Assembly (NCBI GenBank): GCA_964517315.1
Contig: CAZFCJ010000006.1
Coordinates: 1-58,628, forward strand
Length of the DNA: 58,628 nt
Direction of reading: 5' to 3'
From: an uncultured Anaerolineaceae bacterium
GTDB taxonomy: Bacteria; Chloroflexota; Anaerolineae; Anaerolineales; E44-bin32
A model generated the notes under the pieces. It was not told where the DNA came from. It did no database searches and saw nothing but the letters and a program-made list of their open reading frames with translations. Shown here piece by piece: positions 2,496-7,139 of this stretch. The position numbers and the translations under genes are program-made. How positions within the stretch are numbered: the first letter of the stretch is position 1; the number at the start of each line of letters is the position of its first letter.

Positions 2496-2876
2496 ATGGA
2501 TCAATCGGAATCGTCTCCGCACGCGGCTAGGAATACAGGCGATGATCAGGAATTGACGGCCATCGGCGATTCCGATGCCGTTCGGCGGCGCAGAAAGGGT
2601 TGGAATTTGTACGCCGCCGATCGTCTCGACGAGGCACTGTCGTTCCTGCGCGAGGCCCAAGAAGCGATGCCCGAAGACTACGAAATTTCGTTCCTGCTCG
2701 GGCTGACGTATAAGCGCCGCGGCTCGCCGGAGAAGGCCAAGGAGGCCTTTGAGCTGACATTCGGGAATCTTAAGTTGATTGAGGACGAGCGTCGGCGTGA
2801 GATGCTGCGCCGGATCGTCAAGCGTCAGCGCAATCACACCCACGCGGGCACATTCTATTTGGAAGAGGAAGGCTGA
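2496..2876 (+). CDS. Tetratricopeptide-repeat protein
   Basis: TPR-like helices (GWNLYAADRLDEALSFL...FLLGLTYKRRGSPEKAKEAF); AGGAGG RBS upstream. Confidence 0.7.
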   Translation: MDQSESSPHAARNTGDDQELTAIGDSDAVRRRRKGWNLYAADRLDEALSFLREAQEAMPEDYEISFLLGLTYKRRGSPEKAKEAFELTFGNLKLIEDERRREMLRRIVKRQRNHTHAGTFYLEEEG

Positions 2877-3013
2877 TCCCGACCGCGCCCTCGCTGGTGA
2901 AGGCCGCCCGTTCATGCGTCCGCCGACCCTGAGTTCCCCCAGCGGCCAAGTCTTACCTTATCGAAGCAAATATCATAATTCACTTTGGTTTTCTAATTTC
3001 AGTCTCCTATCCT

Positions 3014-3042
3014 TTGAGAATTGCTTTGTTCTCCGATATAAT
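3014..3042 (+). promoter_or_regulatory. Sigma70-type promoter for the selenoprotein/MFS/aminotransferase operon
   Basis: TTGAGA (3014-3019), 17 nt, TATAAT (3037-3042) in an AT-rich tract, 47 nt upstream of ATG 3089. Confidence 0.7.
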
Positions 3043-3088
3043 GCTCTAGAAAATCGTCAGCGGTCTCGGAGGGTGTGGAGCCGGCAGG

Positions 3089-4612
3089 ATGGCTTGGCTA
3101 CGGGTGAAGCGGGATGAGTTCAATCAGGACATTCTACGTCACTACAGAGACTTCGTTCGGGCGCAAGATCAGACCTCCCTCTCCTATCTTCAGCGTCAAC
3201 TGATCTTCGTCGTAGTATCCACCGTCAACAAATGTAGATATTGAGCGAATACACATGCCCAGTGGGTCCGTGAGGCCACACACAACGCCCGACTGGCTCG
3301 AGATCTCCTCATCGATTTCCGCAAGGCCGACCTTTCGGATCGGGATCGAGCCATGCTCGAATTCGCAGTCAAGGCAGCCCGTCACGAACAGGAGCTGAAC
3401 CAGGATGAGTTGGCGCAGATGCGGGCCTTGGGATTCACCGATGCGGATTTGTTGGCGATCATATACTGGGTCGCAAACGTCAATCTCGCCAACACATTGA
3501 CGGCGAATGTGGGACTGGCACTGCACGAAGGCATGGACGCGATCTTTGTCGAAGATGAGTCGCCTCAAGTCGATGCGAGCTCCCAGCGTTCGCTGGGGGG
3601 CACGCATGAGTCCCTGCGCGCCGGATGGCAGCGGGCCTCGATTCCGGCGATGGAGGGCGCCGACCTTGAGTGGCTCAACAGTGATCCGCTCAGCTGGGCG
3701 GACCTGCAGGGGAGGCCCCTTCTCTTCCTGCACCTGGATCTCACTCACGCCAACACCCTTCACTCGATCCCCCAGCTCTCGCGTCTGCACCGGGCAATGG
3801 GTGATAAATTGGTCGTCATCGCTCTTCAGGCCGGCGAGTTCTCGCTGGGAAAGGATCGGGGCTTTACCCTGGCTGAGATCGGGCGCTTGGGGATATCCTT
3901 CCCGGTCGTCTTCGATCCCGACTACCGCCGAATGGCCGGCGCGAACAACCGCTTTTGGCCCTCCCTTCAACTCATCGATAGAGACGGTTTCGTTCGTTTC
4001 CGTCAGTACGGCCCGGCAGGGTTTGGGGCGTTGGCAGAGCAACTGCTATCGATCGTGGATGGAGTGAACGCAGTTCCTGCGGCGCTTGAACCCGAAGGTG
4101 ACGATCCCGGAGAGCAGCTCTGGCTGCATCCTGACGCCACCCCGGAGCTCTACACGACTTTTCGGGGCGGGAACCGCAAGGGTGGGCGTGTGGGGACCAC
4201 TGGGGAGGTGAAGGGTTTCAACCAGGCAGAGGTCTCCGAGCCGGACTACCTCTATATTGAAGGGGAGTGGTCCATGGAAACGGACGGCCTAGTCTTGGCC
4301 TCGAAGACTGGAAGGATGCACTTCCGGTACCATGCTCAGAGGCTGGGCGTGCTAGTCTCATCCAGCGATACGAGTCGTTCCCGGATCCTTTTATCGCTGG
4401 ACGGCGAGGATATCGACCGCGCGGCGCGGGGCCGCGACCTCGACGACTTATCTCAGCTCGACGTCGGGGAACCGCGGTTTCACTGGCTGGTCGAACATCA
4501 TAGGTTCGACCATCATCACCTCGACGTACAGATCAGTGGGCCTGGCACGAAGGTGTTTAGGTTTAACTTTCTCCCCTTCCGTGGAGAGCCCCATGTGTTC
4601 ATGGGGGCGTAG
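3089..4612 (+). CDS. Probable selenoprotein (507 aa): AhpD/peroxidase-related domain with CxxU, fused to a redoxin-like fold and a DipZ-type C-terminal domain
   Basis: ATG 3089 (MAWLRVKR, GGAG RBS) is in frame with ORF 3353..4612 across a single TGA at 3242-3244, in the context QLIFVVVSTVNK-C-R-Y-TGA-ANTH, the AhpD CxxCxxxH position. The AhpD-like second half LSDRDRAMLEFAVK...LGFTDADL follows. Confidence 0.8.
3254..3272 (+). promoter_or_regulatory. Candidate bacterial SECIS hairpin
   Basis: CATGCCC-AGT-GGGT(CC)GTG folds by eye into a bulged stem with a G-containing AGU loop starting 16 nt after the UGA; not computed. Confidence 0.4.
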
Positions 4613-4624
4613 AGCTGTGCGGCC

Positions 4625-5869
4625 ATGAACACAAGCAACCCGATGGTACGGCTCCTCGGAACAAACCAACTGGTGTTCGCGCTGTCCTTCGCCCGCATGG
4701 CGGATTCGATGGGCAACAGCATCCTGCTCATCTTGCTCCCACTTTATGTTGCCGAGGTCCCAGCCCACTTTCTGAATTTGCCCGAATCCGTCCTGGTGGG
4801 CATTCTTATCTCACTTTACGGCCTTACATTCACGCTGTTTCAACCGATCTTTGGCGTCCTTTCGGACCATTCGAGTCGGCGAAAGACGATCATCTTGGGA
4901 GGACTCCTCCTTATGGCGATCAGCACAGCGGCTTTCGTGATCGCGGGTCGATATGCCGAGGTGCTGGCCCTTAGGATGCTTCAGGGTCTGGCGGTCGCGA
5001 TGACCATTCCGGCCTCTCTGACGCTGCTGGCGAACGCCACAGAGAAGCACTACCGGGGCGGTTCGATGGGAGTGTACAGCACCATGCGCCTGATCGGACT
5101 TGGGACCGGCCCAGTGGTCGCCGGATTCCTGCACGTACGGTACGGGTTTGACATCGCCTTCTACACTGGGTCGGGCATGGTCCTGGCCAGCGCCATTCTG
5201 GTTCAGCTTTGGGTCAAGGAAGAAATGGGCTCCCATGAGCCGGTCCACCCACCCAAATTCAAGCTTTTCGATCGCAAGGCGATGGATCGGGACATTTTGT
5301 GGTTGATGGTCGCCACAACCCTGATGGCCAGCGCCTACACGATGGTCAACACACTGGAGAACGAGTTCAACGCTCGCCTCCAACAGACCGCGATGGGATT
5401 TGGATTGGCTTACAGCGCTCTCGTCTTCGGTCGGTTGCTCTTTCAAGTGCCCGTCGGTCGCCTATCCGATCGGATCGGCCGCAAACCCGTGATCGTGGCC
5501 GGCTTGCTGCTCCTGGGCTTGGCCACGGCGGTGCTCGGCTACGTCAGGACGACATTTGAGTTCGCCGGCACACGAACCTTTCAAGGCATCGCGACGGCGG
5601 CAATCGGCTCCCCGATTTTGGCGCTGACGGCCGACCTTTCCGAAGAAGGAAGCGAAGGACGCCGTCTGAGTATCGTCAACACCGGTTTCGGGTTGGGCAT
5701 CATGATTGGCCCTCTCCTCGCCGGTGTGCTCGCGACGGCCTTTTTCGAACTTCCCTTCTTGCTGGGAGGACTCCTTTCTCTATGCAGCGGGTGGATCGTG
5801 TATCGTTACGTACCGGAAAGCATCCAACAATCGGATCTGTACGATCTGGGCCCAGTGGAGACGACATGA
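4625..5869 (+). CDS. MFS transporter
   Basis: About 12 hydrophobic segments; motif A variants GVLSDHSSRRK and GRLSDRIGRK. Confidence 0.92.
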   Translation: MNTSNPMVRLLGTNQLVFALSFARMADSMGNSILLILLPLYVAEVPAHFLNLPESVLVGILISLYGLTFTLFQPIFGVLSDHSSRRKTIILGGLLLMAISTAAFVIAGRYAEVLALRMLQGLAVAMTIPASLTLLANATEKHYRGGSMGVYSTMRLIGLGTGPVVAGFLHVRYGFDIAFYTGSGMVLASAILVQLWVKEEMGSHEPVHPPKFKLFDRKAMDRDILWLMVATTLMASAYTMVNTLENEFNARLQQTAMGFGLAYSALVFGRLLFQVPVGRLSDRIGRKPVIVAGLLLLGLATAVLGYVRTTFEFAGTRTFQGIATAAIGSPILALTADLSEEGSEGRRLSIVNTGFGLGIMIGPLLAGVLATAFFELPFLLGGLLSLCSGWIVYRYVPESIQQSDLYDLGPVETT

Positions 5870-5918: not shown

Positions 5919-7139
5919 ATGGGCGACAGATTCGGAGTGAACTCGACCGTTGCTGCCCTTGCATTCGGCCGTTTAGTCGAGGCGATCGGCAACGGCATCA
6001 TGCTGGTACTCCTACCGCCCTTCGTCGCTGCGCTCCCGACACTCCCGACATCGCTTCCAGAGACCGTGCTCATCGGCATCGTGATTTCACTGTATGGAAT
6101 GGTCTTCACCTTCCTACAGCCTGTGGCCGCCATATTCGCGGACCGGATCCCCCGTAGAAAACCGATGATTCTGGCCGGCCTTTTGGTTATGGGCAGCGCC
6201 TCAGCTGGATACGCACTTACCGGACGCTACATCCAGCTGCTCGTCCTGCGCATGTTCCAGGGGATGGCATTGGCCGTAATCATCGCCTCATCGCTCGCCC
6301 TCTTGGCCAGCGAAACCAAGGCGGACACAAGAGGGTCTGCTATCGGAATTTACGATTCGATGCGGATGATCGGCCTGGGCCTGGGACCGCTGATCGGTGG
6401 TCTCTTGCAGGTCAATTTCGGCTTCGACACCGCTTTCTACGCCGGCGCGGTAGCCGCGCTCATCGGCGCCGCTCTCGTGTACCGTTGGGTTCAGGAGACG
6501 AAACCAGGGCATAATCCTCCAATGCTGGGCTCCAGCAAACTCTTCGACCGTTCCTTGCTCACCCCCAACCTGCTCGGTTTGGGCCTCGCGACGACCCTGG
6601 TAGCCGTCATCTTCATCACGGTGACCACCCTCGAAAACGTGTTCAACGCACGACTGGAACAGACATCGTTCGGATTTGGCTTCGCCCTGAGTATGCTCAC
6701 CTTCAGCCGTTTGTTGGTCCAGGTTCCGCTCGGGCGGCTCTCAGATCACATCGGACGCAAACCCCTCATCTTGGCCGGTCTCCTGCTGCTCGTACCTTCA
6801 ACGGCGTTGATGGCCGCCGTGACGACAACATGGCAGCTCGCGGCGCTGATGGCCATGCTCGGCATATCGACGGCCGCAATCGCCTCTCCGGCCTACGCCC
6901 TGGCCGCCGATCAATCCGAGGCGGGGAGCGAGGGCCGGCGAATGAGCATCGTGACCTTGGGCTTCGGGATCGGTATGATGGGAGGTCCCCTGTTCGCCGG
7001 TACACTCGCATCGGCTTCATTTGTTCTGCCGTTCGCCCTCAGCAGCTTCGCAGCGTTGCTCGGCGCCTGGTTCGTTCACAATTTCGTTCACGACACTCCC
7101 AATGTGCCCGTCTCTGCGCGCGATATCGGTCAGGGATGA
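5919..7139 (+). CDS. MFS transporter (tandem paralog of the upstream gene)
   Basis: GRLSDHIGRKP motif; colinear similarity to 4625..5869 (LPE.VL.GI.ISLYG..FT..QP; EGRR.SIV..GFG.G.M.GPL). Confidence 0.92.
   Translation: MGDRFGVNSTVAALAFGRLVEAIGNGIMLVLLPPFVAALPTLPTSLPETVLIGIVISLYGMVFTFLQPVAAIFADRIPRRKPMILAGLLVMGSASAGYALTGRYIQLLVLRMFQGMALAVIIASSLALLASETKADTRGSAIGIYDSMRMIGLGLGPLIGGLLQVNFGFDTAFYAGAVAALIGAALVYRWVQETKPGHNPPMLGSSKLFDRSLLTPNLLGLGLATTLVAVIFITVTTLENVFNARLEQTSFGFGFALSMLTFSRLLVQVPLGRLSDHIGRKPLILAGLLLLVPSTALMAAVTTTWQLAALMAMLGISTAAIASPAYALAADQSEAGSEGRRMSIVTLGFGIGMMGGPLFAGTLASASFVLPFALSSFAALLGAWFVHNFVHDTPNVPVSARDIGQG

Follow-up and report, generated by a model that had tools for sequence, protein, structure and literature searches.

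The stretch of DNA analysed here (the window), 58,628 nt of a contig from an uncultured Anaerolineaceae bacterium, carries on its forward strand, at positions 3089-4612, a gene whose reading frame is interrupted by one in-frame TGA (3242-3244). In the transcript this UGA is very probably decoded as selenocysteine (Sec), giving a protein of 507 residues in which an N-terminal AhpD-like domain with a selenocysteine-containing redox centre is fused to a module that resembles the C-terminal domains of DipZ and lacks cysteine altogether. With a probability of roughly 80%, the product is a cytoplasmic selenoprotein that is made with the help of SelA, SelB, SelD and tRNA-Sec, its UGA being recoded under the direction of a hairpin in the mRNA and its DipZ-like module acting as a binding part. 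The enzyme class as such is known, whereas the fusion of an AhpD-like domain to a Cys-less DipZ-like module appears to be undescribed.

In standard annotation the gene falls apart into a 51-residue fragment and a 419-residue 'hypothetical protein', and the active centre becomes invisible in the databases for the whole family. Read as one protein, it represents a new architecture among the AhpD-like selenoproteins and a clean natural case of a thioredoxin fold that lost its cysteines but stayed under selection, the sole reactive residue being contributed by a different redox domain fused to it. Whereas Cys forms abound among standalone AhpD-like proteins, none was found for the fusion among the 150 best database matches, which makes the family a useful case for why Sec is retained. 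Given the rarity of the family, the finding is of specialist interest.

The features of the gene and its surroundings, all on the forward strand, are:

3014-3042, candidate sigma-70-like promoter (TTGAGA 3014-3019, 17-nt spacer, TATAAT 3037-3042), a consensus match only
3077-3080, GGAG, likely ribosome-binding site 8 nt 5' of the ATG, read from the sequence
3089-4612, full selenoprotein gene, 507 codons plus a TAG stop, with a single in-frame TGA
3113-3517, AhpD-like (CMD-family) domain, residues 9-143, matched by TIGR01926, Pfam CMD and the PDB relatives 3c1l, 2pfx and 6k40
3242-3244, codon 52, the TGA very probably decoded as selenocysteine; C62, C1 and L055 have TGA here as well, and it is aligned to a Cys of solved homologs
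3261-3274, invariant 14-nt block, identical in three paralogs (39-45% protein identity), synonymous sites included
3262-3281, candidate selenocysteine insertion sequence (SECIS) hairpin, 7 pairs, one bulge, apical loop CGUGA at 3269-3273; RNAalifold consensus of three and of four sequences
3518-3643, linker, residues 144-185, mostly predicted disordered and poorly conserved
3644-4078, thioredoxin-fold domain, residues ~186-330, of the DipZ C-terminal or ResA-TlpA type, without cysteine
3743-3757, vestigial active site T219-H220-A221-N222-T223, where canonical relatives have T-C-I-N-C
4139-4570, Thioredoxin_10 (PF17991) domain, residues 351-494, Pfam score 59.8 bits (cut-off 27.1); in DipZ, this beta-sandwich comes after the thioredoxin fold

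Reading frame and decoding of UGA 3242

A prediction made earlier from the sequence of the window (the original prediction) held that a frame opened by ATG 3089 reads through TGA 3242 into a 419-residue open reading frame (ORF), and this is indeed the case. From the ATG, the frame runs M-A-W-L...VSTVNK-C49-R-Y-[TGA 3242-3244]-A-N-T-H56 and encounters its next stop only at TAG 4610-4612, after 507 residues; the 419-residue ORF that is open under translation table 11 (3353-4612) is the in-frame tail of this longer frame. The start M-(A/T/S)-W-L is common to all four full-length homologs, and the predicted ribosome-binding site can be read as GGAG at 3077-3080. Of the predicted promoter, the sequence TTGAGA-17-TATAAT is present, agrees with the consensus at 11 of 12 positions and is the sole such site in 2700-4900, but shuffled sequences contain 0.8 such sites on average; the match is suggestive only and not significant on its own. 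The gene has also suffered the anticipated splitting by gene callers, since the databases hold a 419-residue piece (P0002) and a 51-residue piece (P0046).

The TGA is not an assembly error, because a contig from run X2 is identical to the window over 3000-3294 and contigs from runs X1 and X4 span 3242-3244 without a difference there among the differences listed. X4 belongs to a different study and is ~5% divergent; the contigs of X8 do not cover 3242. The runs that hold the stretch are labelled as soil metagenomes.

The genome to which the window belongs (working label G000, with the window copy of the gene on contig C6) is a bin of 326 contigs with a completeness of 88.9% and a contamination of 3.95%. 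The search for Sec machinery that had been proposed as a check of the original prediction was successful: selA (538 bits), selB (360.6 bits) and selD (336.4 bits) are all present with scores above their cut-offs, and a tRNA-SeC with anticodon tca resides on contig C16. TGA is not reassigned in G000; it is the commonest stop codon, terminating 1136 of the 1897 stop-to-stop frames of at least 350 codons, and the gene itself contains one TGA as opposed to ten TGG codons. The selD gene (L009, G000:C165:3-908) has an in-frame TGA of its own at the very start of its contig, in the context G-U-A-S-K, and a hairpin with a CGUGC loop ~30-46 nt past that TGA; the SelD of G000 is probably itself a selenoprotein.

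When 61 genomes, G000 and 60 of its relatives, were searched in all six frames, full-length matches turned up only in G000, at three places (C6, C62 and C1) with one TGA each. The two paralogs of the window gene, C62:8688-10205 and C1:900-2378, share 45% and 40% identity with it by alignment (44% and 39% by the six-frame search). The TGA occupies the same codon in all three, within C-R-Y-[TGA]-A-N-T-H twice and C-H-F-[TGA]-R-E-S-H once, and again in L055, the sole homolog retrieved from the metagenomes of the Joint Genome Institute (JGI), which reads C-K-Y-[TGA]-A-N-T-H. Homologs with Cys or TGA at codon 52 had been proposed as a check of the original prediction; those in C62, C1 and L055 have TGA, and no full-length Cys form occurs among the 150 best matches. 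In addition, all 22 standalone AhpD-like genes considered (20 fetched from relatives and two of G000) have C-x-x-TGA-x-x-x-H in an open frame.

Selection has acted on both sides of the TGA at the protein level. The pairwise ratio of nonsynonymous to synonymous substitution rates (dN/dS) is 0.10-0.43 for codons 1-51, where it was computable for five of six pairs, and 0.18-0.55 in all six pairs for codons 53-88, i.e. from the TGA to the next Met, a segment with 47-61% protein identity. These ratios resemble those in the rest of the gene, with the caveat that dS is near saturation. Both flanks are therefore likely to be translated, which argues against a pseudogene as well as against a split gene. 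Together, the Sec machinery, the TGA in paralogs and homolog, the protein-level selection on both sides and the constraint on the RNA that is described below support the decoding of UGA 3242 as Sec.

In bacteria, a SECIS element is a small hairpin that lies ~15-40 nt past the UGA and has G or U in its apical loop, a description that the hairpin at 3262-3281 fits. Its stem starts 17 nt past the UGA, and counted from the U of the UGA the hairpin spans 21-40 nt. It overlaps the invariant block (alignment columns 50-63), where nucleotide conservation exceeds what is seen elsewhere in the gene: among the columns with an invariant amino acid and a degenerate codon, the three paralogs use identical codons in 20 of 129 gene-wide (the TGA column counted) as compared to 5 of 5 right after the TGA (H56, V60, R61, E62 and T64), where the score is the highest of any window in the gene. 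Inclusion of L055 changes the counts to 10 of 98 across the gene and 4 of 4 next to the TGA. Further indications come from the standalone AhpD-like Sec genes. In a subgroup of 11, a clear hairpin follows the UGA with exactly the spacing found in the fusion, pairing positions 21-27 with 34-40 and exposing a CGGG or CGUG loop from +28 (alifold energy -11.13). Once the two groups are brought into one register, the four uppermost pairs are kept in fusion and standalone genes alike, with G-C in the former and C-G in the latter (compensatory swaps). The hairpin at 3262-3281 is, to judge from these comparisons, a probable SECIS; of the original claim of a candidate SECIS, the conserved hairpin stands, but it folds no more stably than shuffled sequences do.

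Standalone genes of this kind are common in the family and order. The 22 considered here form two subgroups according to their hairpins, one with a GGUCU-type loop at ~+21 to +25 and the other with the CG(G/U)G-type loop from +28. They comprise G000:C26:18756-19133 (-), G000:C47:2124-2489 (+) and 20 loci in relatives (L058-L077).

Domain architecture and proposed mechanism

The N-terminal domain is recognised by the NCBIfam model TIGR01926 ('peroxidase-related enzyme') over residues 9-143, across the TGA, with 106.7 bits against a cut-off of 81.8 when U is scored as C; the two G000 paralogs reach 116.9 and 102.4 bits. A Pfam CMD match covers residues 18-60, and residues 17-143 match the solved AhpD-like proteins 3c1l, 2pfx, 6k40, 2oyo and 2prr, while the PA0269 structures 2ijc and 2o4d match residues 35-142. 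The position originally proposed for the TGA in the AhpD CxxCxxxH motif is borne out: the TGA aligns with the second Cys in C-Y-Y-C of 3c1l, C-F-Y-C of 2pfx and C-V-Y-C of 6k40, and the redox centre C49-R-Y-U52-A-N-T-H56 conforms to C-x-x-U-x-x-x-H. Because the match covers only model positions 40-173 of 178, leaving approximately the first 39 positions without counterpart, and because the protein has 507 residues, its domain matches mark it as a fusion variant rather than a typical AhpD-like member. The model NF041238 (AhpD_rel_CFYUT) yields 24.5 bits against a cut-off of 175, and its scores for the paralogs (30.9 and 26.2) are below the cut-off as well.

The C-terminal part has the fold of the DipZ C-terminal domains. 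In a phmmer search, residues 186-428 match those of M. tuberculosis DipZ (2hyx/5cyy) with an E-value of 1e-13. An AlphaFold2 model computed from a 70-row alignment has a mean predicted local distance difference test (pLDDT) score of 83.8 and a predicted template modelling (pTM) score of 0.77; it places a disordered linker at ~143-175, with pLDDT <50 at residues 143-162 and 164-175, and mostly beta strands with pLDDT >90 in the Thioredoxin_10 region. Foldseek ranks 2hyx/5cyy highest for this model (E 2e-22, target-normalised TM score 0.70-0.75, with 0.74-0.75 for 2hyx), followed by 6k40, 2pfx and 3c1l, which correspond to the N-terminal domain. The paralog P0009 gives weak AhpC-TSA/Redoxin matches in its thioredoxin-fold domain.

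The DipZ-like thioredoxin module of the original prediction is thus borne out in its fold, but both active-site cysteines are gone. At the thioredoxin site, where the canonical relative P0006 has F-W-T-Y-T-C-I-N-C, the window gene encodes T-H-A-N-T, and other variants in the fusion family are T-H-P-N-S, T-H-S-N-S, M-H-P-N-T, V-L-P-N-A, L-L-P-N-S and T-Q-A-A-S. None of the 14 alignment rows covering the site, some of which are near-duplicates of the G000 and L055 copies, has Cys at either position, His being found in 11 and Asn in 13. As the CxxC is lost and the module contains no cysteine, it would be unable to perform thiol-disulfide chemistry on its own. Cys49 and Sec52 are the sole Cys and Sec residues of the protein and, with a module devoid of CxxC, its only redox residues. 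The protein is taken to be cytoplasmic because it has no hydrophobic segment (maximum 19-residue Kyte-Doolittle mean 1.35). These comparisons establish the architecture, an AhpD domain followed by a Cys-less DipZ-like module.

Two canonical homologs of the DipZ-like module in related genomes have a TGA at the thioredoxin motif itself. L012 (G004:C33, ~1381-2490) encodes a Redoxin + Thioredoxin_10 protein with the TGA at residue 78 of the translated stretch, in T-U-I-N-C, and L033 (G039:C104, ~1381-1980) is a thioredoxin-like ORF with G-U-I-N-C and a second TGA near its end, probably the true stop. Both are likely UxxC selenoproteins, with the TGA at the first Cys of the motif.

These elements could cooperate in the following manner: UGA 3242 would be decoded by the SelA, SelB, SelD and tRNA-Sec of G000, probably directed by the hairpin at 3262-3281 with its CGUGA loop 17 nt downstream. 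The AhpD-like domain would then bear the sole redox pair, Cys49 and Sec52, accompanied by Tyr51 and His56 of the proton-relay motif. Sec52 may attack a substrate in its oxidised state, for which a partner protein or small disulfide is more likely than a peroxide; Cys49 would resolve the adduct to a selenenylsulfide, which a cellular reductant may reduce again. The disordered linker presumably connects this domain to the module of thioredoxin fold and beta-sandwich, and the Cys-less DipZ-like module may provide the Sec centre with a docking or substrate-binding part within the same polypeptide. For the catalytic role and the docking function, the chances are about even. A more specific arrangement appears doubtful at present: the Sec-containing AhpD domain may have taken over the redox role of a DipZ-type module without CxxC and may dock on the vestigial T-H-x-N-S, with the substrate held by the thioredoxin/beta-sandwich module. 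If it were true, the active site would be built from two different redox folds.

AhpD-like selenoproteins with CxxU are known in bacteria, as the original prediction had stated. 'AhpD-like 1' (COG2128, CxxU) appears with 299 sequences in the Global Ocean Sampling (GOS) survey (PMC2398784), and 'AhpD-like protein, TIGR01926, CxxU' is an entry in a table of a 2026 review (PMC13188914). The window protein shares with them an above-cut-off TIGR01926 score, the C-x-x-U-x-x-x-H centre and the Tyr before Sec. Its TGA is at the same codon as in the 22 standalone genes, with the hairpin at the same distance in 11 of them; standalone proteins have ~180-200 residues, whereas the fusion has 507 and thus ~360 extra, and it has Gln or Asp instead of the relay Glu. 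In comparison with the Cys-only AhpD of M. tuberculosis and PA0269 of P. aeruginosa, the same helix-turn-helix core with Cys, Tyr/His, Cys and His (PMC3141380) is present, but Sec takes the place of the second Cys and Gln that of the relay Glu. The two-domain fold of the C-terminal part is that of M. tuberculosis DipZ (2hyx, 5cyy) and of Redoxin + Thioredoxin_10 proteins, which, however, have CxxC where the Cys-free module has T-H-A-N-T or T-H-P-N-S; in contrast to DipZ-type proteins, the fusion has no membrane domain or signal-like hydrophobic segment, and its N-terminus is the AhpD domain.

A precedent for joining a CxxU AhpD domain to another module is the arsenite methyltransferase/AhpD fusion listed in the same review table (PMC13188914), although the partner domain differs; NF041537 is absent from the NCBIfam matches of the 507-residue protein and its paralogs. 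The original prediction did not recognise the three-domain fusion from described selenoproteins, and indeed no NCBIfam model covers the fusion and the literature searched does not mention it. The section of the GOS survey devoted to fusions (section 9, PMC2398784) names no AhpD fusion, the fusions in its Figure S1 being outside this comparison. Passages on BSepDB refer to the AhpD-like family only and not to a fusion, and a literature search on DipZ combined with selenoprotein found nothing related.

Alternative readings

The most direct challenge to a selenoprotein is that the gene is decaying, a Cys codon of a once intact fusion having mutated to TGA such that only the 419-residue ORF or nothing is made. 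Such a pseudogene would be expected to have a frame that is broken under table 11, as is the case, gene callers do report the 419-residue product, and the L055 copy looks damaged (extra TGA, internal deletion). It is nevertheless highly improbable: the same TGA is kept in L055 and in three paralogs that are only 39-45% identical, dN/dS stays within 0.10-0.55 over codons 1-51 and 53-88, which are free of further stops and frameshifts, a full-length Cys form is missing from the best 150 of 1.84 billion representatives, and the Sec machinery is complete. In a split gene, UGA 3242 would end translation, a second start would follow at Met89 (3353), and the 51- and 419-residue products would act separately or assemble; in its favour, Met89 is invariant in the three paralogs and the first residue of many database entries. 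Yet codons 53-88 would be untranslated in such a case although they are conserved as protein (47-61% identity, dN/dS 0.18-0.55), lie within the TIGR01926 match and contribute to confidently predicted helices (50-64, 67-75 and 84-102). The cut would run through the CxxCxxxH centre and remove its catalytic residue, and no ribosome-binding site is seen before 3353 by eye. This reading is accordingly very unlikely. Barely credible is read-through without selenium, in which Trp, Cys or Gly would enter through near-cognate suppression or a local recoding signal rather than through SelB. The weakness of the downstream hairpin and the missing Rfam match are in its favour, but the genome has selA, selB, selD and tRNA-Sec, the site corresponds to the redox Cys of a family that is listed as CxxU selenoproteins, the position of the hairpin is common to 11 standalone Sec genes, and TGA is the main stop codon.

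A further possibility accepts the selenoprotein and questions the passive role of its module: T-H-x-N-S/T could be a binding site for a metal or small molecule or catalyse a reaction that needs no thiol, or the whole protein could be a redox sensor or selenium carrier instead of a reductase. The vestigial site is conserved (His in 11 and Asn in 13 of 14 rows), the proton-relay Glu is replaced in all four fusion genes, and the neighbourhoods of the paralogs differ and provide no pathway hint, all of which would agree with such roles. Positive evidence for an activity of this kind is, however, lacking, the CxxU-xxxH centre with its Tyr is intact, and the nearest solved relatives are annotated as peroxidase-related; a non-passive module is thus unlikely, if less so than the readings without a selenoprotein.

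Several observations weigh against the favoured reading, a hairpin-directed selenoprotein with a binding module. The proton relay of the AhpD core consists of Glu, Cys, Tyr/His, Cys and His (PMC3141380). Its Glu, located 12 residues ahead of the first Cys, is kept by all 22 standalone genes, whereas the 4 fusion genes all have Gln or Asp there, for which reason the AhpD chemistry may differ in the fusion. The RNA signal is modest: the folding z-scores of -0.55 (3236-3310) and +0.73 (3242-3291) are ordinary relative to shuffles, 5-16% of mononucleotide shuffles of 25-nt segments fold equally well, and an overlapping hairpin at 3254-3272 is about equally stable. The four fusion sequences have no compensatory change among them, conservation of the peptide W-V-R-E accounts for part of the nucleotide conservation, and an Rfam scan of 2900-4700 with E-values up to 10 retrieved no SECIS family and four chance-level matches. 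No RNA run is listed among the runs that hold the 3089-4612 stretch, and the contig comparison includes 56 further differences beyond those listed. For P0003, P0004, P0005, P0012, P0015-P0018 and P0059, the upstream TGA is inferred from truncated starts and not seen. Finally, L055 may be a decaying copy; alternatively, it could reflect an assembly error or, less likely, a form with two Sec residues.

The L055 gene itself (1340-2626) has its second in-frame TGA at codon 47, where the others carry Val or Ile. Part of its Thioredoxin_10 domain is missing through an internal deletion, and the gene is closely preceded by a transposase-like ORF (15 to ~1270).

Distribution and gene neighbourhood

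A HMMER search against 1.84 billion representative proteins, of which the 150 best matches are listed, gave 13 matches below 1e-30. The close members (P0002, P0011-P0018, P0005 and P0059) have their start at query residue 70-99 or later, in most cases at Met89, as expected if gene callers restart after a stop, and the 51-residue head is present as the separate entry P0046. None of the 150 best matches spans the N-terminus and the C-terminal module, so that a full-length Cys form is not among them. The next tier consists of canonical Redoxin + Thioredoxin_10 proteins (22-32% identity) and of standalone or other CMD proteins.

The fusion family is rare, amounting to about ten clusters at 50% identity, and is otherwise known only from metagenome assemblies; one soil bacterium has a triplicated fusion gene. 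At E <=1e-40, the fusion was found in one of 401 sampled genomes of the phylum (G000), and two genomes of the same genus (94% and 78% complete) lack it in the six-frame search. A profile search of metagenome contigs led to a single locus, L055, and in a profile search of the contigs of other genomes, patterns with Cys at the Sec position identified only Cys-type CMD/AhpD-like domains of other bacteria and no fusion homolog. A Cys-type fusion of another kind is encoded by L054 (2170-3447) in a Chloroflexia metagenome-assembled genome: a short-chain dehydrogenase with a C-terminal CMD/AhpD-like domain that reads C-R-Y-C-A-N-Y-H.

The neighbourhoods of the three paralogs have no shared context and give no hint of a pathway. 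The C62 copy is accompanied by a hydantoinase-like ORF and a CobW-like GTPase, and the C1 copy by a zinc-type dehydrogenase and an amidase-like ORF (all named by eye); the CobW-like ORF, L041 (G000:C62, ~3680-4447, -), includes a run of masked or unknown bases that appears as X in the translation. On C6, the gene has an Lrp/AsnC-type regulator upstream on the opposite strand (1453-1962, -) and two major facilitator superfamily (MFS) transporters downstream. The latter are encoded in tandem (4625-5869 and 5919-7139, +) and may be co-transcribed with the selenoprotein gene, since the first begins 13 nt after its stop codon.

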